36,593 nt of DNA from Candidatus Omnitrophota bacterium (lineage in GTDB: Bacteria > Omnitrophota > Gorgyraeia > Zapsychrales > JANLHA01): assembly GCA_023143685.1 (NCBI GenBank), contig JAGLHE010000084.1, positions 1 to 36,593 on the forward strand. Direction: 5' to 3'. The notes beneath the pieces were generated by a model. The model saw nothing but the letters and a program-made list of their open reading frames with translations, did not search any database and was not told the DNA's origin. Position numbers and translations under genes: made by a program. Each line of letters begins with the position of its first letter. Position 1 is the stretch's first letter. Below are positions 1 to 24,000 of this stretch, piece by piece.

Positions 1-3000
1 TTTTCGCTTAGCCTTTTTAGAATTAAATTCTTCAGGGCCTAAAATACCCGCTGTTGGCCCAATAGAATTTAATTGCGTCGCCAGTTTATAATACGTCTCA
101 ATTATTCTATTAACCGCAACACGACTGTAACCTTCTGCTTGATTTTCACCTAAAAGTCTTGCTTTTTTAGCATAAGACAAGACTTCATCAATAGAGTCTG
201 CCAACACGACTAACTCCTCTAATGGTTTTTGAAAATCCCCTCTCTTTTCTCCATCTTTCAGCCAGTTATAAATTTCTCCATAAAACTTTTTGTCGTATAA
301 AATAACAGGCCCGCTCTTAAAAGGCTGTTTGTCCTTTATCACCACAACTTCAAACAATTCATCCAGTGTTCCAAACCCGCCCGGCATACAAATAAAGACT
401 TGGGATAATCGAATAAAGGCAAGCTTCCGAGGGAAGAAATATTTAAATGTAACCGGTATACTGATATACGGGTTGCCTGATTGCTCATTTGGCAACTTAA
501 TCAATAACCCAATGGATGGTGTGCCTTCCAGGAAAGCACCTTTATTCGCTGCTTCCATAATTCCAGGGCCGCCGCCGCTCACAATAGCAAAACCAACGCG
601 TGCAAGAGCCCTTGAGACTTCCACTGTTTTCTTGTAATAACGATGTCCTGGATCCGTGCGCGCAGAGCCAAAAACAGTAGCTGCCTGGCCTCCGGTTATA
701 CGAATCAACCGGTTCATCAACCTCATCTCGCGAAGAGATGATCGCATAAAACCATAACTCAATATCGGTGAAAACAGCCGCAAGTAACTTGCATTTTCAC
801 CTTCATCTGTGTTTATTTTCTTACTTCCGCTCTCAGATAATGGTTCAACGGTATTCCTGTCTAGGTCCAAATAATACATACTTGACCAACAATACTCATG
901 AAAACTTGCTTTAACTTTTTGCTTAAATTTTTCACGCACAAATTTTCTGCCAACAAACAAGATATTTCTTCCTTTCAAGCAGGCATAATGAATTTTCTCT
1001 TTTCCTTTAAGATCAGCATATCGAATATAGAAAATCGGCCTGACTCTCTGCCCTTTTTCAAGATGTTTAGCTTGTTCCTCGTCAAAAATCTGCACCGCTA
1101 TCTGGAAAATATTTTCTTGCAGTGTTTTTAATTGCACTTCCGAAATCTGATGACTTTCAAATGCTTTTATGAACGCAAACTCAAGTCGATACGCAATTTT
1201 TGTTAACCGTCTGATATTTTTAAACCGATAATGAGGAAAAGACAGAGCTAACATACTATAAGTAAACCCTCCCCACATCGGTAGAAGAACCCACAATGAA
1301 GACCAAGACCAAACACAATCAAACGAAATATGCGGATATTTTCGATATTGGAAATACGCTATTAAAGCTAGTCGCATAATTCCGCCCGTAAACCAAAACG
1401 GAATACTCGCGATCCCGCCTAACGCGGAATACCCGGCAATAACGCCGCCGCCGATTGTTATCACACATCCACTATATTTAATAATTTCAGAAGCGAATTT
1501 AATTTTAACGAAAGCCCATTTTAACTGATTATATGCATCGCGGCATTCTACAGAAACCGAGGCCTCATGCTTCGTAGCAAAGTTAAGAAGTTTTGTAATA
1601 TCTCGGTGAGAATAAAGACGTAACCGTTTCATCATCCGAACAGTCTTTCGGAATAATCGATAAATACGGAATTGAACAACTTCCAAATGGTTTAATATAG
1701 GGAAAGCAGAGCCTTTAGAAAGGAAAACAAGGACTGGTGCGGGATCAAAATTATCTTTTTCTGAAAGTATATAATATTGATTAAAGAATGCGCCTTTGCT
1801 GTACGTTAGCGGACCGGCACGCAAAAGGCCTGACTTAACAGCATTTTTTAAACGTTGATTTAACCTGTCAGCTTTCTTTTTGCGGAAAACAGAAGCATTA
1901 AAACTCTCAATATACTTAACAACAGGATGATTCTTTTGAATTTTTCTAAACTGTTCAATTTGCCCTGATGTAACTACATCCATAACTTCCTTTTGAGCCC
2001 GTTCTTCAGAAGCCCCCGGCTTTTTCCAAACAACAGCTTGATCATTCATCGCACTGTGCTTTACAGGCGAACTGCTTTTTGTCGGTTCAAAAACAGGGTT
2101 TGAGGAGTTTTCCTGGCTTTCCGCAAGAACCTGCCTGAAGATCCCTTGCGTTTTGCCGGCTGAGAAATCAACATGCTGTTCTTGTTGATACCGTCGAATT
2201 TCCATTTTTCTTAATGTTACATTATCTTTTCTGACCAAACCTCTTTCACGGGCAGCCGCAACCAATACTTTATAAAAAACTCGTTTAACTTTTTCGGGTA
2301 TAGCTTCTGACCTTGCCATCAATTCCGGGACAAACGAAACTATTGTTTCAAAAATTATTTTTCGTATAAATTCTCTGCTGCTAAAATCAAACTCTTCCAG
2401 GTTCTGAATACGGTCGGCAATCTTGATGATTTGCGCGGCAAACAGGATGCATTCTTTTATTTCCCTTTCATCCTGAGGCAACAACTGCTTAATCCATTTA
2501 GATTTCCCTGTTAACAATTGGTTCAAATACGCAAATTCCCGGACATGCCGATTAAAATAAAATCCCGGAGGAGCCTTGCTTAAAAGAAGAACCATATGAT
2601 ATATACAACTCCCGAATTCCTTTTGAATAACAAGAGGATCAATAAAGGTGTCTTCAACAACGTCGTGCAAGAGGGCTGCTAACAAAATATTAAAGGCCCG
2701 CATATTAAATCGTTCTAATAAAATTAACGCGACTTCAATAGGATGAACAATGTACGGCCTGCGGTCTTGCCTGTGCTCTCCCGCATAAGCTAAAACAACA
2801 AATCTCAATGCCTTTTTTAACCGTTCTTCTTCTTTCTTTGAAATATTGAAATTTTCTTTGATTTTTCTTATAAACTCATCAATTTTTTCTTTAATAATTC
2901 TCTTATCTTCCCGAACATCCTTAATAAACGATCCCAGGTTCATTTCAGCATCTAATTGTTTAGAACCTTTCGATACGATGACCGCGTTTACATACTCTAC

Positions 3001-6000
3001 AAGTTGTCCAATACTATCAATGTTCCACGTTGTGAGCGTATCTGTAATTCTATCCCTGTTAGCCGCGCGGTCTGCTAATTGAACTAACAGCAAGGAATGC
3101 AACAACCGTGGTGTAGAAATATCTTCTAAAAGCTGTCCAAAATTCTCAAAACTATATTCCCGATACATCATTTTAAATAAGCTGTCATGATGGCGAACAA
3201 GGACAACAACATCCTTAATATCTTGTTTACTATAACCAATCTTTTTCATTGTTCTTTTGGCAATACGGGCAGACTGTTCCGGGTGTTCCTTAATAGAATC
3301 TGTCTTCATCTTGCCTGCCTCATGAAAAAGGATAGCCAGCCTTACTAACCTCAAGTCAATTTCTTTGCTGTATTTGGAAAAAACGTTTTTCAAGGTATCC
3401 TGTATTTTTTTCCTCTCAAGAGAAACAGGCCTCTTCTTTACATCAACTAAAAGGACATCTTCCATTAAAAACTCCAGAGCCTTTAAAACATGGACCACTC
3501 TGGTATCCTGATATCCAGGGGTGAACGGGTCGACAAACCTTTTTAATTTTTTCCAAAACGGCAATAATTCTTCCCATTCACCACTTTGAAGAGCAGGCCC
3601 CATCTCTCTGCGCGTTGAAAGCACCTGATCTAATCGTTTCCATCCTGTTTTTTGAACTGGAGATGAACTGTTTTCTTCTTGAGATCCTGTGCTTCTTTTA
3701 AGCTTTACAATATCAACCTCTTGTTCTCCAAAATGTTTCCGTGCTTTGTGCTGAACCCTGTCCAACTTGTCTTCAATCTCATCTCTCTTCTCTAAGCGTT
3801 CCGGGGACATATCGCTCAAAAGTTCAAGAACATTATGGAACAGGGGTTGCCACGTCATAAGATTAAAATGCCTCAGCAACCATTTCATCTCTGCACAAAA
3901 ATCAAGAACATCATCAAACCTTATTTCTTCAAAAGATGCAAATCTTGACCTATCTTTATAGTCAATCCATTTAACACTCACGCCATCCCATCCGAACACA
4001 ACATTTCTTAATCCAACATCACCGTGAGCAACACCTTTTCCGTACAAGAAAGACAGCCCTTTAATCATCTGACTAATTATTTTTATAACAAAGACTTGTC
4101 TTAACGCGGGTACAGCAATCGCCATGTTATCGAATAAATCTTTCCCGCTAACCCCGTCAACATATTCAACTGTTTGATATTCCATAGCGCCTGGCACATC
4201 AGTTATGGCAATTTTATCAACACGCCATATCTGCGCGACATTTGGATGCTGTTCACCCTGAAGCATCTCCCTGAATTTTTCCGCCTCCTTATTGTTCAAC
4301 GATAAAGACCTTTTCGGAATTTTTAAAGCAACTATCTTCCGGTCAACGACATCATGTGCTTTATAAACATAAGCATTGCTGCCGCGGAAACTAATCGGAT
4401 CCTTGATCACAAGGCCCTTTTCAGCAAACATCAATCCTAATTTATAGGGAATAATATCGTCCATATAAACATTTTGATTTTGAACCATTTCAATTACCGG
4501 GCTGCTGGATTGTTCATTAAACAAGAATGTTTCTCTCTTGCCCAGGTCAACACCCATAATGACCATCTTGTCTTGAGGTAATTGCGAAATAATACGCCGT
4601 ACAATTTCATGAGACTTTCGCCCTTCATAAATAAGATTGTTTCGTTTTTTAGACAATAAAACCTGTATAGTCTTTAATAACTCGGGATGATAGCTGTATC
4701 TCTGGAAAACACTTCCTGCAAATCTACCACTCAATGTATCCCCTCTTATCCTCGATACAAACTTGCGGCCATGTTTTTTGCGAACAGCTTGTTGGATCAA
4801 TTTTGCCAAAGGTTCTTTTCCGCAGGATTCCGGGCCATCCAGAACAACGAGCAACCGCTGTCCGCTGTTTCCTGAAACAGCTAAATCTGATACAGACTGG
4901 ATAATTTCTTCCCACCATGAAGAATGTTGCGGCCGCCATTTCCAAACAATTTGTTTATTTCCGGAGAACCAAACCGGTGAAGAAGAGTTTTTGTGCTCTT
5001 TGGCAATATTTACAAACAAAGCCTGAGGATTCGTCCTCGGAAGATGAGCAAGATACGCCTCAACCAGATCGTGGTTTCTGTTTCGCAACGATGCTTCAAA
5101 AATCCGGGAAAGTATATTATTAACATCCCTGTCAATTACCCTTTTAAGATTTCCGTTTATTTTTGCGCCTAAAAATTTCTTTAATACCGGGACATTCACG
5201 GTTTTTGCCTCGTTACAAACAATACCGACATACTCTTCCCTCTTATGTTGAGGAAGAGCCATCCAGCTCTTTATCGTATAAACAATCGCCGAACCATGAG
5301 GCGTAATGTTGTCGCGTAATATTCCCTTAATTTTATTGTTATTCATAAGGTCCTGAACTGTCTTATGTAAATCAAATGTTTGAATTTTATACGGCGCCTT
5401 CTTTTGAAAACGCATAATTTCTTTTAAAAGCTTTTTCTTAGAAATATTCCTTTCCGCAAACCAATGGTATGACCTGAACACTTCCGTATAGGCACTTAAG
5501 AAATCAAGAAGCATAAATGTTTCGAGCAGCTGAAGAACCTTATATTTATTAACATAAATCTCTTTTGGTCCTTTTGAAACATACGGCAACTCTTTATAAA
5601 GCGGATCTGTAAAAATCAAAGATGGTGAATGGTGGTACCGCACAAGCAGCAACACGACTTTCGACTCTTTGACAATTCTTCTACGCATTAATTCCCCGAT
5701 TATTCTTATCGAATACTCTGGATGCACTCGGACAGAACCAATCTCTTCTGAGTTAAGCCTGCGCGGTGCATTAACAAGCACATTAATATCGGGGACAATC
5801 TTTCCTATATCATGAAGGGCGGCCGCTCTTTGAAGAATAAATTGTTCACCCACAGAATGCCCGAAAATACCCTGTGATGCCCGGGCTAATTTCACAACAA
5901 TATCAGCATGCATCCGCGTAGGCACTGCGACATCCGGATACAAATCAAGCAAGCCGTTACCTTTATTTTGATTCCTCAACTCACGGACTTTTTCAAACGG

Positions 6001-9000
6001 ACACAACTCAAAAAGAGCCCTGCCCCCACCATACTTTGGATCAATCGGTGAACTGCTGCTATCTCCGGCTATTTCCTTCATGCGATCCAGCCCTTTTTCA
6101 AGCCTGGAGATATTAGTTATATATTTAACCTGATAGACGATCTCGAGGTCTTCATCCGAAAGGTCAAAAACCAACCCTGACTCTTTAATTCTTTGTATTA
6201 ATGGCAAGATCTGATTGATTAAATCTTTATATTTGTGCCGCTCTGTTAATGTCATAGATTTAATATCTATTAAACCACGCGTATGTTCGTGATTTGCCAG
6301 ATGAAGCAACAATGAATCATAATCAAAGAAATGATTGTCCTCGTGAGCTCCTTCCGGCAACGGCTTGCCATCTTCCCGCGACCGATGAATTTCTTCAGCG
6401 CGCTTGAGGTACCACTCAATATCTTTTACCGGTGAAGAGGATTTGTTCGTTTCTTTTGGTTGTGGATACTTTTCTTTCAACGCGTTGAGAAGTTGTGAAT
6501 ATGCAGCAACCGCGATTGTTTCATCTTTCTTCCATAACACCCAAAGCGCGTTTTCTTTCCAGTACCGCAAGACATAATCTTTAAACATCTTGTCCTGATT
6601 CATCACAACCTTAAACGCGGCAACCGCGCGCTGTGGCGCTTCGCTGAATTGCGTCAGCCTTTCAAGCAATAAATATTTCTTTGACGAATCAAATTTAAAC
6701 AATCGCCAAATCTCGCGGAGAGCCAAATCATTTTCTTTCTCAACAGCGGCAACGTTTAAAATATTAATGATATACGCCTGTAGATATCGATCTTTACCTC
6801 GAGCAATCTTGCCAAGCAAATTAACAGCGTTTGGCCAGAAGGATTGATTCGCCTCTTCCTTTAAGAACCGGCTGATTTCATCATAGAATTCTCTTCGCTC
6901 TTGCGCCTTAGAATCCCCTTGCCACCATATTGGATCAGTCTTTTGCTTATAAACCTTTTCAAGCCCTAACCACGTTTCTTTTGCCTGTTGATATACGTTT
7001 TGTTCCACGTTAAGATTTTGTGGCAGGCGTTTTGTTTTTTGCAAAATCAAATCTTTTGCACTAACCTGAATTCGAACTCTCTCTCTTTTTTCACCACGCT
7101 TCACAAAAACTTCATAGGTTTGTTTTGATCGTCTGCCCACCAATTCCTTCCATAACAATTCTCTAAAGGCCCGTTTACCAAACTCGCTAAAATACATCCC
7201 GCGCAAATTCTTAAACGGCATATTTTCAAAATACTCTGCGGGCTTACCTATCAGTTGGCCTAACTGCCTGACCATTTTATCCCGACTGATCGACGCGGAA
7301 ATATCAACGTTATGGCCTGAAACAGGATCCATAAACAACTCATCAAAGGATTTACTAAACCACATGTGATTCAAATATGTGCTATCTGTCCTGACAAACT
7401 TAACATCAGCCTTAACCTCTGGTGTTTCTTCCGCGATCAATGACGCCTGCACGCGTGTAAGGCCACGCTCAACAATTTTACGTTCGAGGACCTCCTTGAT
7501 TCCTGCCGGAATTACTGCCGACCATTTATACTCTACTGGTGAACTGCTTATCTCCGACAACAATGGTATTGCTCTATCATTACCAGAACGTTTTGCCGCA
7601 AAGACCGATTTTAACAATGTTGTTTTATCGTGTGTCTCTTCTTTAATCCCTCTCTTCTTTGACACACCTCGTGCACCTAATCCACACACTCCTGACACCT
7701 CTGGCCTTAAGACTGTAGGCGCCAGGATATTACGCACTGTTACTTCTTTATTTTCAACATGTTCTTCGATCCTCACTTCGCTACGTCCTGCCAGAGGGCT
7801 TGAGGAAGCCCTGGCAGCGAATAATGCGTTGTCATGAACTCCTGAAGATACTCCGCTGTTATATCTTTGCTCAACTAAACTATCATTATTGTGTCCTCTA
7901 AAATCTATATTCCCGTCACTGACTTTAATGCTTTCATCTTTTGTGCCTAACGACCTGACATATTTCATAATGCCCTGATCTTGCGGTGTCTTTTTCCTTA
8001 CCCCTTCTCCTGATAATCGCGCACCCAATAAAATAAACGGTATTGCTGTTACCGGAACCGCGTCATTAGATAAAGGTGTTGTATGGACCGGCAAATTCTT
8101 CTCTATATCATTCCACATCTTGAGTAAATAAATCTTCCGCGAGATCGAAGCGTAATCAACCGGCCTTTCATAATCACTTAGTTCGTCAGCAATGGAAAGG
8201 ATAATCGCAGCCTGAGCAGCTTTGCTTGCCAAATACGCTGCCCAAACAGGGTCGCTTTCATTAACTACAGAAGAAGAGGAAACTACAAAAACAGAACCAA
8301 CCGGGTTCGCATTTAGTATTTCGTGTTTCGCATTTCGGTTAGGGAGTAGTTTTGTGTTAAGATCTCTCTCTTCGTTCGAGATGACATCTATAGGTGAGGC
8401 GCTTGGAACAATAATGTTCATCAACTCAAATAATTCTTTGAGAATATATACCAGGTGTTCCCATAGAGATTTTTCTTCAGTCAGGTCAGCAAGGGAAAGT
8501 TCAATAACTCTTTGTTTCTTAGGAATGATTCTATTGATCGGAACAAACTCTTTATCAACTGTATGAACCAGAATATTCGGATCAGAAGTATCAACCTTCG
8601 TACCTCGAACCTCGTACTTCGTACTTTCTACAATCGGACTGGATGCATTAGCCCCATTAGCAGGCAGGACAACCGTAAATTTTATTCCTTTATTATCTTC
8701 ACTCTTAACATCAATTGTTCCACCAAGATTTTCTACAGCTAATTTGGCGATATCAAGGCCAACCCAATCTTCATGTAATGCTTCAGGGAGCTGCTCACCC
8801 TCTGTCACTGGAAGATCAAAGATTTTATCTATAAACTTCGAATCAATGCCGACACTTGTATCTTCAACGGAGATAATAATATTTTGAGATTCTGCTTCCT
8901 CTTCTAAAGAAACAACCACATGCCCTTTCTCTGTAAAATTCAAGGCCTTTTCAATAATGGCCTGTAACCCTATCATAAGGAATATTAACTGTTTCTTTGT

Positions 9001-12000
9001 TACAGCTAAACCGGCCTGTTCAAAGCGAGTCTTTAATTTCAAACCTTTCGCCTTAAACTCTTTTGCTAATCCGAAAACAATTTCTCCAAGATTTTCAGAA
9101 AAATCAACGTTAATCACCGTGTCCTTTTTTCCTAACCCGTTAACAACTCCTGATAATGCCACAAAATCCTGAACCCTTGACAAAAGCATCTCAATCTTCG
9201 CGTAAAGTTTTAGTTTCTCCCCATATCTTGGAGATTTTAAACCAAAAGTAGTTACGCACGTGCCGCAAGATTTACTCAGCTCTTGAAGCTTCTGTGCTTG
9301 TCGCTTAATGTTTTCAATAGCCCGAAGAATATCCTTCTCTGACCTTTTCAAAGAATTAATTTCATCTTGCATATATTTTTCTAAAAAGAGTTTTTCTAAC
9401 GCGATCCTGCTGACATTCAAAATCCGTTCCCTCTCTTGTGTCTCTTTTCCTGCTTTCTTTAGCTCCCTGCCCGCCAGAGAAAAGACTTCGTCCACCGAAA
9501 CCCCTCCCATTATTCTTTGTGTTATCTCATAAATATTTTTCTTAACAGATAAATCCGCTGTTTCTTTTCTTGATACGACCTTTTGTAACCGGCTTACTTC
9601 TTTATCAACTTTTCGCGATAAGGATTCTTTGTCCTGTTTAAGGCTTAAACTAACTGTGTTTATTTGCCGCAAGGCTTCTTCTATATATTCCATCAGCCGG
9701 CCGGCAATCTCTTTCATTTGAAACAACACTACACACGCGCCGGTATCTTGTTCTTCTATATACTGGTGATACGCACCTATTAAATCAGCTAAAATTTTCT
9801 TAACAGAATACACCGTGTGGACCAGGAACCTGAGCTCTTGTGCATACCGAACGCGTTGTGCGTCAAGATAATCATTTGTTTCATTGCGCTGCAAAGCAAC
9901 CTCTGTCATTTTAATAAACGGCTCAAGAAGCGACTTGATAATATCTTGTTCATCGCTGGATAAAAGTTCCTTGTTGATAGGCCATCTATTCATCATTATG
10001 ACAAACCATTTATTCTCCTGGCTGTGGTTAGAAACCTGGCCTGTCATATAAAGGATGTCGTCGGGATTGTCATATTTACGACGATCTTCCGCGTATTTCT
10101 CAGGGACAACACGGTTTTCAGGGCCTAATGGCTTATCAGGGCTGTATTGTTTAGATATCCTTACTTTATAATAATCCCACCAGTTCTGAGAACCTTCGGG
10201 CAACACCCCGTCTTTGGTTAATTGATCAAAATTCATCAAACGCTCAATCTGCCATAAAATTTCTGTGTTAGTCATCGGAGCCCATTGCGGCCACAAGGAT
10301 CTTCCTTCTTGCTGGCGCATAACATTCTTTATCCGCAACGCGTCCTCTTTTTCTTGAACAACATAAACACTAAGGCTGGAAATTCCCATAACAAATTCCA
10401 GCGCGTTTTGCAGTCCAAGCAAGATTTCCTCCTGGCCAGTAGTACGCAAAAGATCTTCTGCCAAACCTTTTAAAGATTCAATATTCTCAAGGTCCCCTAT
10501 CCCTTTATACGAACCCATATCATTAAATAACCGGTCAATCTTTGATATTCGGGATTCCAGGGCCTCACCAATAGTAGTCCCCTGAATTTCTTGATTAAAC
10601 AATTTATCCACATCTTCAAGCTGCTTCAATTTAACATACAAACTTTTTACAGCCTTAAAGGTTGGAAGCATCGACTCTGCTGTTTCACGGTATAGCTGTT
10701 CTTTTAACATAGTTTTTTCAGTTAAACTATAAACAGCGTCCGTCTTATACCGGGCAATAATTTCCTCAAGATCTTTTTCCATCTTGTCAACAAAATCGGT
10801 CATTTCACCTAAAATGCCAAAACCGGAAAATACTGTTTCTTCCTGATTACCTTGCTGTTTCTTCTTTAATTTTTTAACCCCATTACGAATTACGCCTCCA
10901 AAAGTTATACTAATATTCCTGACACCATGACGGATATCCCAACTTTCTTTACGTACGACTAGCTGCCCAATTACTTCCCCTGCCCTGGCCTGAATTTCTT
11001 TTGAACGATCTCTCCACATAGGGTAAAGAAGATTTAATATTTCCGGAATATTATGTATCGCTGTCCCCATATCCTTATCCCAAATGCATGCCATATCATT
11101 TAAAAACATCAACCGCACTCTCCTGTAGCGGTGATAAATAAAGGATTCCAGGATATCCCTTGTCTGTTTTTTGGCAAGTTCTTCTTCTCTCTTGTCCTCC
11201 TGAGATTTCAGAGAATAGGAAACAACTTCCCGCAAAATTTCTCTTCGTTCTTCTTCTCCCACCTCAGGATGCAGGTAGCGGTCCTTTTTACCGCTCATCC
11301 ATTGCTCTCTTGATTCTCCCTTAAGATCAACTTTAATTTGCACAACGCCATTCTCCGACGCGTCTTTCGTAACATATTGCCCGTAATCTAATGCCTCTCC
11401 TTTAATATTAATGAACGGAGCGAATATAAATTTGCCGGGCTGCCGAGCATGAATTGTCATCTTAATCCGTGTATTTTGAGAACGCGTGAAGAACCTGTCA
11501 ATCCGTGTTGACGCGCCGTTGGCATAAACCCCATTGCCGTTTTCTTGAGCATAATAAATGTCACCTGCTTCTTTATATAACTTAACCACCTTTAATTGGC
11601 CAATCTCTGCCTTTACCGGAATTTCTTCTTTTATCTTTGTACCGTCAGATTGCGGCTTCTCAATTTCATACGCGTAATATCCTTCATTATTCGGATCCAG
11701 GATAGCTTCAGCAATTACAGAGTTTACTGGACGGTCAAATATTATGTCGAAATAACTTAGAACAGGATCTTTCCTATAAACCCACGGATATTCACTAGGC
11801 AGGAAGTTGCTTATATCCTTAATTCTATAAGGCACTATCGAGAGCAATTTCTTAACTGCAGCATCTTTTTCTGCTTCCTCTGTCTCTTGCTGCAATATCT
11901 CCCAAACAACAAATTCAACCATGTTCTCTTCAGCCTCTTTAATGTCCGCGAACTTTGCAGCCAGGGTAATCAAGTCTAAAGAAAATTCTCGTCGATCTTC

Positions 12001-15000
12001 TTTTATATCTATAGAAGACTTTTCAAGCGCTGCCTCTTTTATAACCAAAGAAACATCATAAAATCGTCCCGCAATAACAGGCACATCCCTATACTTCTCA
12101 GACATACTGGCCATAAACTCTGAGGTAATTTTGACAACATTTTCCTTTTTCTTAACCGGTGAACTGGCAGGAGAACTCGTATCCTTTGAAGAAGATGCCG
12201 CGCCTTTATCTTCTTGCTCTTTTTTAATTCTTAGATCTTCCGCAACAACAACCTTTTCTATTTCATCAAAATCAGTTATAGACCCGTTGAGCTTTCGCAA
12301 TACTTTTTGCATCTCTTCTTCTGAAGAAAGGGCCTCACCAAACTGTGCCTCTAAAGACTTCATGTCTTCTTCTGCAACAGCTTTTCCTTCTTCAAGAGCC
12401 TTCAGGTAAGCATCTACTTTTGCGGCATCATTCTCGACAAGCGGATGAATCTTTGTCCAATCCGTCGTTCCTTCTTCAAGAAGAGCAACGAGATTCTTTA
12501 AATTGTCCTTAAAGAAAACAAGCAAATCTGACAATATGTCGCGCTCTTTCATTCGAGCTTCTTCTTCGAGCTGTGATGCAAGTAAAACATTTTCTTTCCA
12601 GGCCTCGATGTTTTCATCTGCTTTTGCCCGAAGATTGCTTCTGTCAGCATAATAATCTTGAATCGTTGTGTCATATTTCCCGAATAGTTCTGCCAGGCCT
12701 TTTAAAGATTCCGGTTTACCAATAAATAATTTTCTTAACCCTCTGCTAATCAAAGCAGCTGACATCAAACTCGGTGTCTTCAACTCATGCAAAAGCTCTC
12801 CGATATTATCTTCATCAACAGAATTTTCATCTATCGGCGAAGAGGAGCCATTTGTTTTTTCTTCTAGACTCCTAATATCTCTTTTAAATGCAGCTGCTTT
12901 TTCTTTAGCTAACCATTCTGCCTCATCAAGATATCCAAGATATGCTTCAAGCATTTCCGGCCGTGATAAGTAATATGCTTCCAAACGATCAAGGATCTCT
13001 ACAATATCCTGTCCGTCCGGTATCTTATCTACCGCGGCATATATACGCCCTCGTTGACGAGCGATCTCATTAACCATCTTTCTGTTCCAACTAAGAGTGT
13101 TTCCATTATTATTTCCATTGTTATAACTATTTTGTCTGCCATTCTGTTTCCTAATCGGTGAAGAGGCCTTGCTTTCATCACCAGAACTCAATCCATCTAT
13201 TGATGGATGAATTGGGCTGGAAAATTCTTCGTGGCGCACGCCTGGGTTCTTATCGCCCACAGCTAACATATCTTTCGGCAGAATGAAAGTCACTTCCAAC
13301 CCTTTGCCCTGAGCATCTTCAAAATTCTTAACATCAACCGTGCCGCCGTGGAGTTGCGCAATCAATTTAATATTATGCATCCCTAGCCCTAACCCATGAC
13401 GCAGCGTGCCTTCTTTGTCGGAAAGTTCCTTTGTGGAATATCCTGCCAAGTACGCATCTGCCTCTACTTCTTCCGGGATCCCGCCGGCATAATCGCGCAT
13501 ACGAATACTGATATTCTCACCCAGAGATAACAGCTCCACAAAAATCTTTCTGTCTTCTTGCGGCGCCCCTTGCTCCACATAAGCCTGATATGAATTTCTT
13601 AATACATCGCTAAAAGCATTTCCAAGTTCATAAACTTTTGCGACAGCCAATTGAGCATCCGCTTCTCCTTCAAAAACCAACTGCAACCCTGCCCCCCCGG
13701 CAGATTGATTAACAAAATCAACAAACCTTTCGATATTCTTCTTAAGTGAAATATCTTTAGAAAAATCATTCCCGTTTCCGGCCAACACCATTAAATATTG
13801 AATGAACGTTCTTATATCAGCGTCGATTCCGTGTATCTTTTCAATCACAGCCTGAACCTCTGGCTGTTTAATCTGCTCTTTACTCAACGATTGAGAAATA
13901 CCCCTGATGTTTATAGAAAATCGTATATCACTTAAAAATACGGTAAACTTCTTATCCAAAGCCCCTCTTAAAATAACCATAATCTCTTGTATATCTTCCC
14001 CTTCCAGCCCGGCTATTTCCAATCCATCTGTCGCCTCTTTCATCTCGGCAATAATCCTATCAAAAATCTCTAAAGATATTTCATCCTCAATAGACGGTAT
14101 CATCTGAGTTCGAGATTGCAACTCATCAACTAACCTGTCATGCCGAATTCTCAATTCCTGAATTTGCGTTAACACAGACGGGATTTCTTCAACAATAGCA
14201 AGGCCCTGCGCCCACCCTTTCTTGGCTAACAGGCTGTTGATTCTACGCACTATTTCTCCATACAAGATCGGTGAGCTGGAAATATTTGTACCTTTATCAA
14301 TGTTCTGGATTTGCGAAGAAGAGGATTCTATCTTTTTCGATGGTGTCTTATATGTATTTTCCCTCTCTTCACCGGCTATGCCTAATGCCTCCTTCGCTGC
14401 TTGACGTACTTCCGGATGCTCGTCTTCTAATACCTGATCAAAATACAACAACGTTTTAATCGTCTTCAAAGATAAAACAGCCTCTCTACGAACGACCCAG
14501 ACAGGATCTTTTAAGGCCTCAACCAATAAGGCAACTGCCTTGTCTCCTCCAATATATCCTAACGCCTCTACCGCAAACTTTCGCGCCTCCCAATTGTCCG
14601 GATATATAGGCATTTTTAAACGATCCACCTTGCTCTCGTCCAATATCTTACCTAACGCCCAAGCAGCAACGCTTCCAACTTCCCATGAAATTTGGCCTAG
14701 GCTTGTTGTTAATTCTCTGTTTGAATTCCTCTTTTCTTCCCAAGGTGTTTTTCGCCAAGGATGATATTCCAAAGAATTGACGTTTCCATTTTCTGAGTTA
14801 TATTCTTCAAAACCAGTTATCGGTGGCGTAACCGAACGATACCCCAAGTGTATTCTTAAAATAGATATCGCGCGTTCATCATTCATATGCGCTAATGCGA
14901 TCGCGAGTCCAACACGTGCCGGGATCAATGTCTTATCATTGGCCATCTTCTGAATTAACGAATCTACCAAATCCAGATTTTTTCGCTTGCTCACCTCCAA

Positions 15001-18000
15001 TGAGTTCGAAACTCCTCCACCCGGAGACGCTAACGACACTTTGACTTTCCCTCGCGCATGATTTACTTCAACTTTATACTCAAGGGTTCCATTAATATGG
15101 CCTTCTTCATAAATAACTTTCTCTTGCGGCTCCTTAACCGGAGAAGAAACAGCTGAAGACAAAGTTCCTTGTGTAATCTTGTCTTTATTAAGTTCTTCAT
15201 AGAGTCCCTGATAAACATTTAAGTAGTGAATCAAACTGCGGCTCCAGTCATTATCCTGTCTCATGCCATTTGCAACAATTTGGTGCCACAGATCAGGATC
15301 GTTCTCATAGATACGAATGGCTCTCTCTATCGCCGCATACCCTTGATCCGCATTAATCCCTTTACGATTCGCATCTTCATCCGGATGAATAAGTGCACGG
15401 GAAACACCTTCAAACACAAAACCTGTCCAATTGTCCCCTCCTTCAAACACCGTATCTGCTAAACCACCGGTCAACCTTACGATCGGTACGGCACCATACC
15501 GCATCGCATGCATTTGCGTTAACCCGCTCGGTTCATAATCCGAAGGAATGAGCAACCCGTCTGCGCCAGCATAAATCATGCTAGCTAACTTCGCTGAATA
15601 AGCCTGCACATAAGCTATTGAAATCCCCAATTCTTCTTTTCGCGGATCAGACGCTAACCGCGCAAACTCTTCTTCCAAACTCTTTTCTTCATCTGTTTCA
15701 CCGGTCCCCAAAATAACAATGTCCATACTCAACGCTGCGCGCTTGCCTTCATACATTTCTTGAATCATCTGCGCTAAAATATCTAACTGTTTCTGGCTCG
15801 CCACACGGGATACCACGCCAAGCAAGAACCGGCCTGTCGCAACGTTTAAGAATCCGTGCTTCTTGCTTGAATCCTTAACTCCTAGGGTTGTTACATCGCC
15901 GTGCCGTGATAACACTTCCTGTAAAAGCATCTTATTGACAGAACGGGCTTTCTTAACACTCCCGATCCCGTCATCAATGCTATAATTCACCACAATCTTA
16001 GAATCGGTCGCCGGATTCCACACACTAAAGTCAATACCGTTTAAGATCCCGCCGAAACGCTCGCCAGCTATTTTTAAGAGCCGGTCAACCTCAAACTCTG
16101 TATACGAAATCTCACGTGCATATGTATCGCTTACCGTATTAATATAATGACCCAGCCCTTGACCATACTGAATAATCCCTGGCACAGTGGCCATAAAGTT
16201 GAGCTGCCCGTTCTTAATAATCAAGTTTCTTATTTTGTCAGTTTCAGACAACCCTGTTTCGTTTAACCATTCCACCGGATACTCGCCCTGATATCCGATA
16301 TTGTGGATCGTAAAGGCGCTGCCGCTTTGCGCGAACTTATCTTGATAAAGAGTACGCATATATGTCGGAACAAGCGCGGTATGATGATCGTGCGCATGAA
16401 TGACATCCGGTTTCGTTCCTAAGAATTGCAACAAGTCTAGCGCCCCGCGAGACAAAATGATGGATTCATAGAACTCTGCTTCTTTGCCGGTATATGGTTT
16501 CACAAAGAGGTCTGAACTTTGTGCCTCTAACATATAAACTGTCATGCCGTCTTTCGTAATCTTCTTGGCGGTCACACGTTCTTTTGCCCTGCGTGTAAAA
16601 ACAAGTTCACCTACAAACCCTTCAACATCTTCAACCGTATATTCATCTAAAATTTTATCTACCAAAGATTTAAAATAAGGAATGATCAGTGTCACGTCAT
16701 TCCCCTGCGCTGCAATGACTTTAAACAATTCATACATCACATCGCCTGCCCCGCCGACTTTAACGATCGGCCCGAATTCCATGCCCACCGCAGCAACCAT
16801 GCCCTTAAAGGCATGGTTGAGTTGCTTAATAATAGGTGAGGACGTCTGACTATCAAAGTTCTCTCCGACCCACTGCCCAACAGCCTGAAATTTTGCGATC
16901 TCGCTATTTTTTATTACCCCTTTAGGATGTGCTTTCACCGGTGATGAAACTGTTGGCATTCTTTCCGAATCCAAAATAACCCAATGGTGTTCACTCAATT
17001 TAAATGGTACACCCCATATTTCAACAACCGTCCCTTGCTCTAAAGATTCTTTATAGCGGTTCATGTCGGCTGACATGATCTCGTCCACACTAACATCTTT
17101 CCAGGCAGTATTAACTTCTTGATCTTTCCCTCGAGCATTAACATCAAACTCTCTCATTCCTGTTATTTTTGATAATTTAAACAATATTGTCCAGAACTTG
17201 ACAATTGCCTCATCCTCTAGCTTATCAATAAAGTAATAACAATAGACATTAGACGTTTTCAAGAAATCTTTAAGCGCTTTAGCTTTAGAAGGATATTTAG
17301 CATAAATACTTTCAATTTTCTGTATAACCCTTTGTGCTTTTGCGTCTCTCTCCACATCCGGATTACCTTCATAATCACTTAACAATCGATAGATTCTATC
17401 TGTATCCCACTTCTTGCTAAGCTGGGCCAACCCTTCTTTTGTAATAAATGTATTGGCAAATTCAACAACACTATTACGCAAGAACCCTTCTTTTCGAACA
17501 CCTCGAATATCCGCAAGGTTCAAGACCCGCAACGCTGCTAAGTCAACACCCTGAATAGAAGCAGGGTCAACCTCACCCTTAAGAGCAACCCCTATAGCAG
17601 CATGGTTCAAAAGCAACGCCTTACTTTCATGAATCTCTTGTTGAGAAATATCTGGGATAAGGCGCGGCATAATATGGGCAGCCATCTCAACGCTATAAAT
17701 CAAATGCTGCGCGCCGGAAGCCTTGGCCTTGCCGATGTCATGCAGTAGCGCGTTCAGCCAGAAAACAAGCTTTTTGCTTGGGGTGTTTGTTACCTTGACA
17801 TAATCACGGTGGATTGCTGAAAAATGTTCTTTTATAATATTCTCAATCGCATCATTATTAAATCCATCCCTGTCATTGACCGCAATAAACTGAACGGCAT
17901 CCAAGACCATTTGCGTATGCGCCCACGCGCTTATCGCTCCCAGTCGCGGATTAGTTGTGCCATTATAAAAACACAGCGCTTTAAGCTCTGGGATAACCTC

Positions 18001-21000
18001 CCAAAGCTTTCCACTATCAGCCCATTTTCTGATCACATCAGCTGGTCGAGAACTAGAAATAATTTCCTGGTTAAACTCTTGTGTTAATTTCTTAATACTA
18101 TCTGTTCTTTCTTCTACCTTCTGATCTGTGGCCTCTGTCTTCGGCGCTACTCCAATAACCACCGCAGCCTCTTTATCCTGCTCTAGTTCCTTAATAAACG
18201 CATTCCACAATCCTTCAAGACTTTCTTCCTGTGCCGCGTTAGTAAAGATTTCTTTGATCACGTCAACATCTTCTTTAATCACTCTCATACGATAATAATC
18301 TCTCCAAGCCTGATCTGTGATATCCACAACAGGTGAGCTGGATGCTGCGAATGTTGAACCAACAGTGTTACGTCTGTTAACCTTTTGGACTTGGTCGATA
18401 TCAATTAAGCGAAGCGTTGACTCCTCAACAGCTGTCATGCCTGGTTTCACATAATCAATAAAATGAACCATTCTTTTTTGTGCTACGATTTGTTGTAAAT
18501 ACTGATCAATGGCGATCATGTGGCCTAAAACCTTCTTCAAGGCGGCTAAAAATCTTTCGATAAGCTCCAACAAGAAGTTAAACAACGAGCTGCCAGCCAC
18601 ATAATTCTCCAAGAACAGATTAACAACTGACTCAACAGAAGCTGCTTGCCTATCGATAGCAACAACGTTCATGTCGACCACGACCCGGCCCGGCACCGCG
18701 ACAATATCTTTCCCTGTAGTTTGTAATGCATACACGGGCTGGATTGGGGAAGAAGATAATTTCTCTTTTTCCAGATGATCTTTCCATTCTCCATCCAAAA
18801 CATCAACCAGGTTGTCATAGAGGTTATAATTATTAATAATTACATCAGAGAATTTTTTGTAGTTTTCTTTGTGCTTCTCTGGAGCAGCAAAGATGCCAAC
18901 TGTTGTCTCTGTTGCTAACCCTTTACTAAAATCTTCTAATGCTTTTGCAACATCTTCTAATTGTGCATCCGCGTTAAGAATACTTAACAAGCCTTCGAAC
19001 ATCTCTTTCTTCCATTTATAAACCTCATAAACAAACGGGATTCCCATAACAATCGCATCAAGAAGCGTGTACATCCCTCTAACCCCAACAGGGAGATCTG
19101 CAGACTTTTCTATTTTCTGGAAGACCTGTCCTTCTTGTGGAGCGATAAGATGCATTTTGACAGATGACTTGCCTTCTTTTCCTGCAATTATTTCCCCTCC
19201 TACTCCGTAAACAGCAATTCTTTCGTCAATCTTATCGACAAACACATCTTCCCCTGCAACATTCTTTGGATCATAAACGAACAATACGTCAACACTTTCA
19301 TTTTCCCGCCCTTTGAAAATATTTTCTAAATAACTATTCAACGTCTCAACTTTATTAAAATATGCAAATCCCCATGTGCGCGCTGCCTGCATATTTTCAA
19401 CCGATCGGCCTTGGGCAGCTAAGAGTGAAATAATTTCCTGCTTCTTCACAACGCGATCTTCTGCTGTCAGCTCTAACATCTCTTCGCGCGTATCATAAAG
19501 ATTCTCAGGCAAGTTGGCGCCCAACCGTTCTTGTCCAAACCCTGCCTCAATGATCTTAGCCATCCAAGCAAAAGTCTGGTCTTCATTAGGATTAGGCTCT
19601 GTTGCCATTTGGTCTTCTTCGGTAAGAACAACCGGAATCTTCGGCATTGGATAATTACGCAACCAATCTGAAGACCCTGATACCGAAATCCCAATATCAG
19701 CTGGCTCAAGGCCTAATTCAATATTTTGATCCATTGCGTCAACAACCACGATATTACCAATCTTATTAATTTTAACGTTCTCATCAATGCCAGGATAAAT
19801 TGCTTGAAGTTTTCTATAGTTATCTTCATCTTTAATAACAACCAAACGGATCTCTTTTTCTGGGAATCTTGAAGCCAAGGCCTGCGCCAACAATACTGCC
19901 GCTGTGATGTCTCCGTATCCTTCATAAAGGAAGTTAATATAAATATCCATAATCTTAACGCCTTCTAATTTTTCTTCAGCTTTTGAACCTTCAACCGGTG
20001 AAGAAGTTTTATCTGCCTTTAACGCTTCTTCTGCTTTGGCTCTGGAAAAATAAACCTCTTCGCCTGTCACAACGATCAAGGAATTACGGTTAACATCTGA
20101 ATAAGACTTGGCGTAAGGACCGTTGACCCATTCTGTGTGGCCGTTCTCGTAACAGATAATGAACTTGAATTCGTATGGATTATTTCTGGCAGGTACGATG
20201 TTGGCTGGCACAACAACAGCCCATAAATCATCGCGGATATGTGTAAGTGTTAAAGCACCGTCATTTTCGTTTTGTACCCAATTAGTGAAATCGCCGGTGA
20301 GAACAATTTCGCTGATACCTTCCGGCGGTGCCCGCAAGCTGAACAGCATCCCTTCTTCAACACCGGATTGTGAACGAAATTCCACTAATGTTTGTTCTGA
20401 AGAATCAAATGCCTCTTCTAAATATTCGTGAAGAAGTGCCTGAACAACTGGCCGCTGATCATGTGACAACCAACGTACAATACGTCTCTGAGTTGTCGCT
20501 ATCAAATTACGGTTTCCTGGGCCATCTGTTATAACAGCCATTGCATGAAGAAGCCTATCTCTCGCGATATTATCTTGGCCAACTCTATTGGCGCGTAACT
20601 CACTCATAAGAACTTGCTCTAATTCGTAAAAACGATTACGCACCTGATCAGCTTCGTTCAAAAGTTGTGGTATATTTCTAAAGACAACATGCATATCAAT
20701 ATCAGAAGCAACCCCTGCCTCACCCATTTGGACACTTCCGAGAAGGCTTCCGTCTACAACAAATTCAGAACCAAATTCATTCTGTACCTGACGTAAAATC
20801 GCATGAGCCATTAATGTCAGTGCCATCGCATTAATATTTTCACCAGAAGCCGTAACAGCAACATTTCTTTTTCCCCAAGATTCGAAGCTGTCTTTATAAA
20901 TATCCTGCTCTTCATATCCAGCCTTAGCCTCAAACAACGCCTTGATAATCGGCGTAACCTGTTCAAAGACCGGAGAAGAAGATGCTTCGCGGTACTGTGT

Positions 21001-24000
21001 CTTACCGTCTTTCGCATACACAGAGGCTTCTTCGAAATTAACGTCATCTGTTTCTTGCACTTCCACAATCGCTGTCACCGACTCTAACGGTCTGTACATG
21101 CCTCGTGTTAACTGCTGTGCGGCTGTATTATAGAGGAGATCCCACTGGTGCGCTGTGCAGGAGAGTGTAACTTCTCTAACCTCATTAACGATCATATGGA
21201 TAATTTGTTCATAATTTAAACCATCCACATTGCGTGCTACCATATCGGCCTGACCTTCATAATCGAAACCTGTAACCGTCACGCCAAACTGCTCAAACAC
21301 ATGGAAGGCTTCGCGAACAAGGGCGTCAAAGCTTTGTTCCGGCTGTGTTCTCTTAATAACCGCTGCTACCTTCTCGCCTGTATTCCAAACATATCCGCTG
21401 ATCGCCACAACCATTTGAAACGTTGAATTAGCGCCGATAGAAACGATATTGACCGGCTTACCTGTCTTTGGCATAACAACCACCCATCCTCTATTAACGA
21501 AGATCGCATTTTCTGGATAGTATTGTGTGGCCGCCGAATAACCATCGCTGTACTGGAATGTTAAGGCTTTCTTATCTGCAGCGTAAACCGGTTTTGATAT
21601 CGCTGCCATCGTAACTTCATAATCAGGGATCAGAGCCTTCATAAAATCATCCGACACCTTCTCCCCCGCCCACACCACGCGGATTAGGGAGGATGTCTGG
21701 GCGTCGGCTTTTGTGACCGGGGAGGAGGAACTGTTGTTGTCAGCTGTTGCGACAGGTGAAGAGAAGGTGGTGCCTGAAGAGGAGTCTTGTGTTTGATGTC
21801 TTTTCATATAAGGCTTTCCTGCCGCCTTTTGTGGTACAACATCAAACAATCTTCTGTTTGCCCACGCGACTAATTGATTTTCTAAGAATGTATAAATCTC
21901 GCCCGCATCGCCTGGGACATATGCGTTCTTAATTTGACGTTTATCTACATCAACTTCTTTAGCCAATTTCTGTATAAAATCATCGACGGAGACTTGTATC
22001 TCTTTTCTTCTTACGACCCCAACTCTTTGGGCTGTCGTCTTTTTAAATATTTCTTTTCTCTTTGCCGCATCACCTTCATCATAGATCGGGAACGTAGAGT
22101 CGCTCAACAATCTTACAGCTTTACGGCTCAATCCCATCTGTTTCGCTATACTGGTAATAAACTCTTTAAATTCTGCAGGATGTGTATTAATAAAGTTCCT
22201 CATCACAGAAACCGTTACCCCTTCTGGCAGGTATTTCTTAACATATTTATCAACTTGTGACCCATTGCTTAAATTCGTTTCTGGAGTCGTAAAGATTGTC
22301 TCAGCTCTCAATAACGGATATGTTATCTTTCTCTGAATTTTCATCGCGATCATCGCATTAGCAAACGCGCGTCGAACAATCTTCCTCATATAATTAATTG
22401 CTTTTTTCTTTACGTCTCGGTAACATGGTCCGTCTTTAATTTTCTCATTATCATAATTTACTCCTATTTGCTTGGCTACCTGATCAAAAGTTCCCGCTTT
22501 GACTTTCTTATCCTCAAATTCTCGCATTAATTTATTGCGTATACTTATATACAATTTATAATCGACGCTGCGTTTAACAATCCAAATACCCATCGGTATC
22601 ATCACAGCCCATGGCACAATCCAAAGATACCCAAACCAATAAGCCGCAACAAGTACGCCCACGACTGGGACAATAACTTTATAATAATCAACAATATTAT
22701 CTAAGTTCCCTTTAAAGAACGCCCACACTGTCGGAACACCCACATATTTAGCAAACGACTTGAAGTTCGGATCAAGAACCATCCAGAAAAATATTGGGAT
22801 AATCGCAAAATGCTGATAACTAATGAATATCATAAAGAGAATAGAAAAGATAACATCCCCTGCAGCCTGTGCATTTCGACCAGCCTGATACTTGTCATGA
22901 TTCAAATTAGCAATTACCTGTGAAGTAAAATATATCCCTGCCAAGATAAAGAAGATACCTTGCCCTGACACCAATCCTGCCGTGACCATAGAAATAACAC
23001 CTATTGTTGGAGCAACATATTGTGTTCGTGGCGTATCATAACTTGGTCGTGGATCAGATAAATAAGGATAGACCAACATAGCAACCGCCAAAGACATCCA
23101 CAAGAGTTCAAAAACAAATAAACCTGTAGGAATAAATGGACCAATCAAGAGATACGCCAACAACAACCCACCCCCGATACGAATAGAGGCTTCGTTCGCC
23201 CGATAATTAGTTAGCTTATCTAATCCGTTTGTTGCTGGAGCCCGAACAGTTGGAACAAAGTCAGATTTTCCTGTCACAGAGAATTGAACCTGGACAACCA
23301 CATATCGAATAACATACGCCATAAAATGCCATAATGCGCCTGGCTTATAAAGCGTCCTGTATAACCACATCCCGAACCCTTTATGGAACCCATGAACCCG
23401 ATTCATCAAGGCAATAAGACCTGTGTTGATAGATTGTGAGAAGAGGAACATATACCCAACAAACAACATCATAAACGGATAAGCCGCATAAAAATCAATC
23501 CCCAAGATAACAATGGATATCATGTGCAACAAGAAGTTAACAAAGACAAACGGCTTCATCCCGTAGAACATAAGCAACAAGACAACCTGCGTTAATTTAT
23601 CTGTTACAAGAACATTTTTATTCTTAAAGAATTTGTTCCCATAATAATCTTGCAACATTTCCAGATAATCCAACGAATATTTTTCATTCGGTGTACGAGC
23701 AGGAATAAATCCTAACGCTCGTCCTTCCCCACCTTTATAAAGGAAGTCATACTCAATATCTCCACCATCTTCAACTTTAGCCTGACCGCCCACAGCATCT
23801 TCAGCCGCACGCTCTAATGAAGATGTAATTAATCCTTCGTATTCTTCCTTGGCCACAAACTTACCATATTCCAACAATGTTCCAACCTCATCCGCCCAGA
23901 CCTGAGAAACCTGAGTCCACCCTATGGATGCAATATTTTCACTTCCCGCAACATTGCTTCCTCTCGCATCTGCCGCATATTGAGGGAAGGTAATTGACGC

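Follow-up and report, generated by a model that had tools for sequence, protein, structure and literature searches.

The window, i.e. the whole stretch of 36,593 nucleotides (nt) analysed here, is the entire contig C312 (JAGLHE010000084.1) in the genome of a Candidatus Omnitrophota bacterium (G000; assembly of 2.55 Mb in 328 contigs, 89% complete; other G numbers denote genomes of relatives, P numbers homologous proteins). It is filled by one open reading frame (ORF) on the minus strand, which comprises 12,197 codons without a stop, is open at both ends and has its N-terminus at the high coordinates. At its ends C312 does not overlap any other contig of G000 by 15 nt or more. The ORF encodes a giant multi-module protein in which the tetrapeptide Ser-Ser-Pro-Val or Ser-Ser-Pro-Ile (SSP[V/I]) recurs at 22 sites between amino acids (aa) 4944 and 11507 (window positions 21751-21762 to 2062-2073). 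This tetrapeptide, more exactly [S/A/T/V]-S-S-P-[V/I], is the G000 version of a short separator between complete, normally free-standing enzymes. The separator is used in two kinds of Omnitrophota protein, namely the Archaeovorin-like giant of the window and a family composed of signal peptide, N-domain, cargo and a C-terminal GGIDL domain. The features of the window are given below from the N-terminus of the ORF onwards (separators by motif scan and domains by Pfam, unless stated otherwise; (-), minus strand).

1..36591 (-): Archaeovorin-like giant multi-module ORF, at least 12,197 aa, both contig ends open (ORF scan)
22639..28356 (-): 12 transmembrane-like hydrophobic segments, aa 2746-4651 (hydropathy scan)
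21751..21762 (-): SSPV, aa 4944
21715..21726 (-): SSPV, aa 4956
20968..20979 (-): SSPV, aa 5205
19993..20004 (-): SSPV, aa 5530
18802..19209 (-): EarP-like glycosyltransferase domain, aa 5795-5930, stops 16 aa short of the following separator
18742..18753 (-): SSPI, aa 5947
18328..18339 (-): SSPV, aa 6085
16936..16947 (-): SSPV, aa 6549
16831..16842 (-): SSPI, aa 6584, 11 aa ahead of the GlgA module, aligned with an SSPV of P0121 (motif scan, alignment)
15406..16797 (-): complete glycogen-synthase module GT5+GT1, aa 6599-7062 (Pfam, alignment with stand-alone GlgA)
15136..15147 (-): SSPV, aa 7149; the same boundary has SSPV in P0121, NSAV in G022 and DQAM in P0004 (motif scan, alignment)
14380..14598 (-): HEAT repeats, aa 7332-7404
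14266..14277 (-): SSPI, aa 7439
13270..13623 (-): HATPase_c, aa 7657-7774, ends 16 aa before the next separator
13210..13221 (-): SSPI, aa 7791
13153..13164 (-): SSPI, aa 7810
12832..12843 (-): SSPI, aa 7917
12154..12177 (-): SSPA (aa 8139), directly followed by SSPV (aa 8143)
8659..8970 (-): HATPase_c, aa 9208-9311, matches the C-terminal end of a stand-alone ORF of 1012 aa, stops 5 aa short of the separator (Pfam, alignment)
8632..8643 (-): SSPI, aa 9317
7792..7803 (-): SSPL variant, aa 9597
7534..7545 (-): SSPV, aa 9683
6427..6438 (-): SSPV, aa 10052
6043..6054 (-): SSPI, aa 10180
5617..5862 (-): HD domain, aa 10244-10325
4972..4983 (-): SSPV, aa 10537
4495..4506 (-): SSPV, aa 10696
3958..4386 (-): protein kinase domain, aa 10736-10878
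3655..3666 (-): SSPV, aa 10976
2368..3390 (-): HD + HD_4 (RelA/SpoT-type), aa 11068-11408
2062..2073 (-): SSPV, aa 11507
175..558 (-): LOG / SLOG (Lysine_decarbox), aa 12012-12139

The original prediction had spoken of about 25 such linkers. Motif and coordinates were right, and the count has to be lowered to 22 SSP[V/I] within a total of 24 SSP, the two others being SSPA (12166-12177) and SSPL (7792-7803). From the composition 0.17 SSP[V/I] are expected in the C-terminal 7297 aa and 0.06 in the N-terminal 4900 aa, and 2000 shuffles of the C-terminal part gave a mean of 0.15 and a maximum of 2. The first 4943 residues, i.e. the 14.8 kb N-terminal part in which no copy had been predicted, contain indeed none. 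Every separator site lies C-terminal of the last transmembrane-like segment (19-residue Kyte-Doolittle windows with a mean of at least 1.7, a crude predictor), and no Pfam family scored above the cut-off in the first 4.9 k aa.

Pfam was run first on the pieces between the sites and then on eight overlapping, unsplit tiles of 1200 aa, because cutting at the sites could have hidden domains that span them. The unsplit tiles returned the same 12 envelopes, none of which contains an SSP[V/I]. Since the envelopes cover about 20% of the region, 22 randomly placed sites would all miss them with p ~0.007, in agreement with the earlier statement that no copy lies inside a recognised domain. The three pairs of sites originally reported to bracket the GlgA (15136-15147 and 16831-16842), the kinase (3655-3666 and 4495-4506) and the EarP-like domain (18742-18753 and 19993-20004) proved to be exact.

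The domains found comprise the EarP-like domain, GT5 and GT1 (GlgA; GT5 with an E-value of 3.5e-43), HEAT (HEAT_2, 1.1e-18), two HATPase_c, three HD and one HD_4, a protein kinase and LOG/SLOG (Lysine_decarbox, 1.9e-22). Several boundaries are tight: GT5 begins 11 aa past a site, the EarP-like domain and one HATPase_c stop 16 aa short of the next site, and the other HATPase_c stops 5 aa short. Residues 16-468 of the 469 residues of the stand-alone GlgA of G000 align to aa 6608-7131 of the giant, inside the sites at 6584 and 7149, and a stand-alone kinase-type ORF of 1012 aa aligns through its last residue at aa 9314, with the site at 9317 following three aa on. Judged by these alignments, the modules of the window equal whole proteins.

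A BLAST search of the giant against 120 homologues and all other ORFs of G000 gave only eight high-scoring segment pairs, which are too few for boundary statistics. None of the 40 relatives' genomes compared belongs to the genus of G000, and a search for close orthologues among proteins of 3990-12,697 aa gave only P0121, which matches in the GlgA module alone (43% identity). Cysteine accounts for only 0.2% of the 12,197 residues of the window ORF.

The separator is conserved as an amino acid sequence, with selection at the protein level. The logo of 63 sites of G000 reads [S28 A16 T6 V6]-S-S-P-[V44 I19], the fourth, aliphatic residue being as invariant as both serines. The hydrophobic fraction is low only from -5 to +5 (0.19-0.24 compared with a background of 0.35), and the flanks of the 63 sites are otherwise unrelated. 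At the DNA level information is restricted to five codons (positions -1 to +4), outside of which the relative entropy is at background, and third positions vary. The two serine positions of the motif together use all six serine codons, the first position five of them and the second all six. The alternation of TCN and AGY codons, from which conservation at the protein level had originally been deduced, is accompanied by flanks lacking nucleotide conservation. A DNA repeat or recombination scar was rejected as the main cause on account of the background entropy beyond the five codons. Internal translation starts were rejected as well: the fourth codon is GTT, GTC, GTA, ATT, ATC or ATA in 21 of the 22 window sites and GTG in only one, and the sites are therefore not internal starts. 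A mild codon preference was observed over the 65 sites of G000, with CCG for proline in 39/65 (background 38%) and TCA at the second serine in 25/65 (background 20%); in the window giant alone TCA takes this position in 12/22 sites (p = 4e-4).

A six-frame scan of G000 detected 104 SSP[V/I], 65 of which fall into 11 large ORFs (29,076 aa) with an expectation of 0.7. The other 4062 ORFs of at least 100 aa (973,625 aa) contain 39 compared with 29.6 expected, which is near background. The linker, to be looked for in other giant proteins of the genome according to the original prediction, thus recurs in further large ORFs. The 11 carriers are the window giant, an ORF on contig C37 and nine ORFs of one Omnitrophota family, whose members in G000 (loci L001-L008) lie on contigs C212, C7, C299, C71, C53, C36 and C29. 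Contig C37 probably continues C36, because both share repeats. The nine family ORFs have a signal-peptide-like N-terminus and a 320-aa N-domain ending in RKYFSGG, with 45-66% identity between paralogues, and the complete ones end in a C-terminal domain (C-domain) of about 55 aa, GGIDLNP..LQIKRDGNGVPLP..GFxPVIINxxP..LLG. All nine ORFs of G000 with a full N-domain carry at least two SSP[V/I], the first about 5-60 aa after the N-domain and the last about 10-30 aa before the C-domain. Methyltransferases, HATPase, a nucleotidyltransferase, a complete LpxC, HEAT and AAA_5 together with VWA are among the cargo that the sites enclose.

The family is large and apparently undescribed. Neither N-domain nor C-domain is matched by any Pfam or NCBIfam model. 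A search with the N-domain returned 2889 proteins of 1274-4057 aa at E <=0.001 in this one length class, which belong to Candidatus Omnitrophota or Omnitrophica where the sources name the organism. The cargo of the homologues comprises glycogen synthase, PGM, PGK, GPI, GAPDH, aldolase, PEP synthase, kinases, PP2C, receivers, GGDEF and more. Of 201 genomes taken from across the phylum, 26 were matched by the N-domain profile; these belong without exception to one class and have at most 14 matches each. The C-domain profile matched 6043 representative clusters (3014 at 1e-10). In 149 of the 150 best matches the domain stands at the very C-terminus, and these proteins reach a length of up to 5808 aa. 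The window ORF contains neither N-domain nor C-domain, its own termini lying off the contig; a single GGIDL word occurs at aa 1158 without the rest of the C-domain. The giant ORFs of the relatives are not among the N-domain matches either, the longest matching frame having 4891 aa.

An AlphaFold2 model of the N-domain based on 34 sequences is confident, with a predicted local distance difference test score (pLDDT) of 84.5 and a predicted template modelling score (pTM) of 0.84. No match to its fold was found in the PDB (best Foldseek E-value 0.033; best VIA-align Z 3.9 against 48,161 chains), and only unnamed Omnitrophota clusters were found in the ESM Atlas. When the N-domain was modelled together with the next 73 aa, the domain was again confident and both separator sites fell into blocks of mean pLDDT 39 and 42; a helix begins at the valine of the first site and a strand (pLDDT ~80) lies between the sites. 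In this model the two sites are thus predicted to lie in exposed, low-confidence loops. The strand, 30-60 aa past the N-domain and flanked by these loops, has the pattern x-V-x-x-x-L-x-E-N (L004:4162-5334 (-), model residues 359-368) and may complete the sheet of the N-domain. Words such as LVEN, LLEN and LVEL follow the N-domain in many homologues.

Some further observations concern the family genes and their surroundings. About 3.6 kb upstream of an intact family gene, a 151-aa frame (G000:C212:3563-3874 (+)) matches the N-domain over positions 64-167 alone (E 5.5e-59); this frame is probably the fragment of a gene. In the protein P0122 (3396 aa) the central part of the C-terminal tag (profile positions 20-48) forms an internal repeat of 20 partial copies. 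An ORF that resembles a transposase by eye (G000:C36:55-1050 (+)) lies directly upstream of the family gene running off contig C36, and the assembly may have broken between C36 and C37 for this reason. Furthermore, small ORFs directly upstream of two family genes (G000:C7:12596-13003 (+) and G000:C53:10171-10683 (-)) look PilZ-like by eye, judged by the motif RxxxR ... D/NxSxxG, which we take to be typical of PilZ. The accessible text of West-Roberts et al. (bioRxiv 10.1101/2023.11.21.568195) places pilZ homologues next to giant genes. Mutual BLAST comparison of 13 ORFs flanking family genes yielded no pair at E <=1e-3 that would indicate a conserved neighbouring gene, for instance one for a protease.

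Giant ORFs of 11,205 to 85,816 aa, reached through their GlgA module, are also present in the genomes of relatives, and the following counts cover the fetched parts of each giant. While G000 has SSP[V/I] (65 observed, 0.7 expected), the giant of G022 has N[SAP]AV (35/0.7), that of G021 SS[SA][LIV] (16/1.9) and ASSA (9/0.4), that of G018 SS[SA][LIV] (7/1.3) and that of G013 D.AM[LVI] (5/0.5). The dialects of other genomes are mostly near expectation in each genome, the small exceptions being SS[SA][LIV] in G000 (7/4.2) and SSP[VI] in G021 (2/0.2) and G018 (1/0.2). The dialects of the relatives are nearly mutually exclusive and 10-50-fold enriched.

The word of a giant is also that of the N-domain proteins in its own genome or in a sister genome, with tN[SA]AVl in G002 (from the genus of G022), D.AM[IL] in G013 and ASSA or SSA in G021. 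Further variants are SSPA (G180), [AV]SSP[VIL] (G193, G133, G101), SGSP (G231), SS[SA][LIV] (G036) and D.A[LM]LP (family proteins of G031). In P0121, an Omnitrophica fragment of 6091 aa, SSP occurs 20 times compared with 1.24 expected, the fourth residue being free. The word DAYI, which occurs seven times in G002, was considered as a separator and rejected, as it belongs to an internal repeat. Aligned on the aliphatic residue, the words take the common form [S/N/D]-x-[P/A/S]-[V/I/L/M], and according to the genetic code single-nucleotide steps link them.

Past residue 420, no tetrapeptide is as common as SSPV in the 120 best N-domain homologues, but many of these proteins have none. We compared the 25 homologues with at least three SSP[VI] with the 77 that have none, leaving out the 18 with one or two; in this comparison the difference in SSP arises by construction, the difference in D.AM does not. 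The 25 proteins contain no D.AM[LVI] in 43,888 aa, the 77 proteins 74 in 126,343 aa, and DAAM occurs 27 times in the latter (1.0 expected).

The dialects are regarded as equivalent because the homologous GlgA module bears different words at one boundary. The module of P0121 aligns from SSPV to SSPV and takes in both sites of G000; in G022 NSAV stands about 19 aa after the module, and in P0004, an N-domain protein of 1424 aa, DQAM stands about 21 aa after it and is directly followed by the C-domain. In the 45 aa ahead of the C-domain, which is present in 106 of the 120 homologues, SSP was found in 33, D.AM in 18, D.A[LV] in 8 and SS[SA]x in 2, and many of the remaining 45 have similar words by eye (DKAI, DPAI, ASPM, NSAM). 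In P0004 and in the giants of G031, G030, G010 and G022 (L011, L012, L013, L014), the GlgA module is immediately preceded by a conserved stretch of about 60 aa (..YEV.L.P...FEYTF....W...P.GNGRV..), with no separator in between; at this position G000 has two SSP sites 35 aa apart.

The motif hence behaves as a selected protein-level signal at module boundaries, as the original prediction had proposed: it occurs far above expectation, spares all recognised domains and is encoded by varying codons. The proposal that it is a recognition site also gains support. One word recurs over many unrelated junctions in 11 ORFs of one genome and near-exclusive other words stand at equivalent places in relatives, which argues for a trans-acting factor that would read the genome-specific separator and co-evolve with its sites. 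This reader would most likely be a processing endoprotease that releases the individual modules from the polyproteins, be it in the course of export, after it, or in a cytoplasmic array of the giant. A protease seems the likeliest reader because the units are whole enzymes, the modelled sites lie in exposed loops and the polar-small-aliphatic form of the words resembles protease subsites. We assign to this reading, in which cleavage is inferred only, a probability of about 0.45. On a broader scale, one class of Omnitrophota might make much of its exported or membrane-tethered enzyme repertoire as polyproteins, chains of dozens of complete enzymes of cytoplasmic type, which would be cut at a genome-specific word ([S/N/D]-x-[P/A/S]-aliphatic) co-evolving with a dedicated putative protease; this extension is put forward tentatively and with some doubt.

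Several points weigh against a co-evolving protease. The dialect patterns were defined after viewing the same sequences in which they were counted. No separator occurs in what was sampled from the giants of G031 (20,005 aa), G030 (13,332 aa) and G034 (6,666 aa), and giant proteins therefore do not require one. Proline immediately before an aliphatic residue is an unusual P1 residue for most endopeptidases. The original prediction had suggested looking for a protease in the rest of the ORF; Pfam detected no peptidase family at E <=0.01 over the 12,197 aa of an ORF that is cut at both contig ends. The proteases encoded elsewhere in G000 (one S8, three S41 and three HtrA-like matches as well as weak S9 matches) are of ordinary families, and none could be tied to the separator motif. 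The N-domain was considered as the protease and rejected, as it has no PDB fold match (see above) and no invariant histidine or cysteine, with which a new protease fold would still be compatible.

As to the remaining proteases, a C39 peptidase was not found in the 89% complete assembly of G000. Its only Peptidase_S8 match (C232:607-1716 (+)) belongs to a frame of 591 aa that runs off the 5' end of the contig and may be the tail of a larger protein.

The separator could also be read by a factor that leaves the chain intact, e.g. as a docking or start signal for module-wise export, unfolding, chaperoning or assembly, or as the ligand of a binding domain. Genome-specific uniformity and dialect turnover would fit any trans-acting reader, the carriers have signal-peptide-like N-termini and a conserved C-terminal tag (the one found in 6043 representative clusters), and one separator stands just past the N-domain and another just ahead of the C-domain. 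However, no candidate reader of this kind is known, and AlphaFold2 shows no docking of the motif on the adjacent N-domain (weak evidence at a pLDDT below 50). We regard a non-proteolytic reader as unlikely. Another role of the separator would be that of a modification site, as the original prediction had considered, with phosphorylation of serine by co-encoded kinases or O-glycosylation of the linker serving regulation or protection from proteases. The core Ser-Ser-Pro, the frequency of kinase, PP2C-type phosphatase and glycosyltransferase modules among the cargo and the serine retained in several dialects (SS[SA]x, ASSA, SGSP) would agree with such a role. It is weakened by D.AM[LI] and D.A[LM]LP, which occupy these boundaries too and in which no hydroxyl residue is fixed, as well as by the aliphatic fourth residue of G000, which is as invariant as the serines; a modification site appears improbable.

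There may also be no reader at all, the word being a favoured short structural cap or linker that has spread within each genome by descent, duplication or gene conversion of linkers. Serine, asparagine and aspartate are classic helix N-cap residues and proline is favoured at helix position N1, which together with the helix starting at the valine of the first modelled site and the mild codon preference (CCG 39/65, TCA 25/65) speaks for this possibility. A generic cap would, however, mix S, T, D and N forms within each genome, where one stereotyped tetrapeptide is seen; the use of all six serine codons and the lack of nucleotide conservation in the flanks argue against recent copying, and the flanks of the 63 sites are unrelated. 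In our estimate the absence of a reader has little probability. Recombination junctions at the DNA level, at which modules would be swapped, were likewise part of the original prediction. The boundary position is common to modules with different neighbours, the GlgA module for instance occurring in the giant, in P0121 and in the 1424-aa P0004, but nucleotide conservation stops at the motif codons, beyond which relative entropy is at background, and the third codon positions are variable. A stretch of four to five codons that differ at synonymous sites would presumably offer too little homology for recombination. We hold recombination junctions to be very improbable.

Giant proteins of Omnitrophota have been described as Archaeovorins by West-Roberts et al. 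(bioRxiv 10.1101/2023.11.21.568195), who, in the accessible text of the preprint, suspect cleavage into smaller products on other grounds, report peptidase domains (C39 or S8) near the termini of giant proteins and state that the absence of information on cleavage points prevented them from splitting the giants for structure prediction. Like the Archaeovorins as described there, the window giant has many transmembrane segments (12 in our crude scan) together with HEAT, GT5 glycogen-synthase-like, GT1, HATPase_c and Lysine_decarbox domains; no peptidase domain was found in its sequenced part, both termini lying off the contig. Neither the separator motif nor its dialects nor its sharing with the N-domain family is described in the main text of that preprint, as far as accessible, and the accessible text of the giant-protein preprints uses neither SSP nor linker as a term. 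Peptides map to the giant ORF of Velamenicoccus archaeovorus (Seymour et al., PMC10066038), and the accessible part of that article makes no mention of signal peptide, multidomain, fusion or cleavage.

The giants of Omnitrophota are among the longest known proteins, and the separator, which is enriched about 10- to 130-fold (about 130-fold in the window), offers concrete, testable cut points and a segmentation rule for them. It furthermore ties them to a very large family of multi-enzyme proteins bearing a signal peptide. If our reading is true, the separator would be the key to parsing giants of 10,000 to more than 85,000 aa into their real products and would provide a handle on the deployment of enzymes by these suspected predators or parasites. 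Co-evolution with a protease, if true, would mean that cells process polyproteins in the manner of viruses, and to an extent that only viruses are known to reach.

In viral polyproteins and MARTX toxins many units are joined in one chain and short junction motifs are read by a dedicated, co-evolving protease. Here, in contrast, the motif belongs to a cellular genome in which at least 11 separate genes share it, the units are enzymes of the housekeeping type and cleavage is only inferred; the likeness would thus be a functional one, and membership in either group is not claimed. The P97/P102 adhesins of Mycoplasma hyopneumoniae undergo endoproteolytic processing at S/T-X-F|X-D/E. There, too, a short motif recurs in many large proteins of one bacterium, in that case surface proteins and processing sites, whereas motif, organism and protein families differ from ours and the putative processing would concern enzyme modules. 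Cellulosomal and other secreted multi-domain proteins contain Pro/Thr- or Ser-rich linkers that are long, variable and of low complexity. Like these linkers the separator forms polar, exposed segments between folded modules, but it consists of a fixed word of 4-5 residues within only about 10 polar residues that is uniform across the genome. The fixed word in 63 sites, with a hydrophobic dip only from -5 to +5, differs from a flexible linker of low complexity. Compared with these known systems, the sequences suggest as new a junction motif of the polyprotein type that is genome-specific and occurs in cellular giant proteins.

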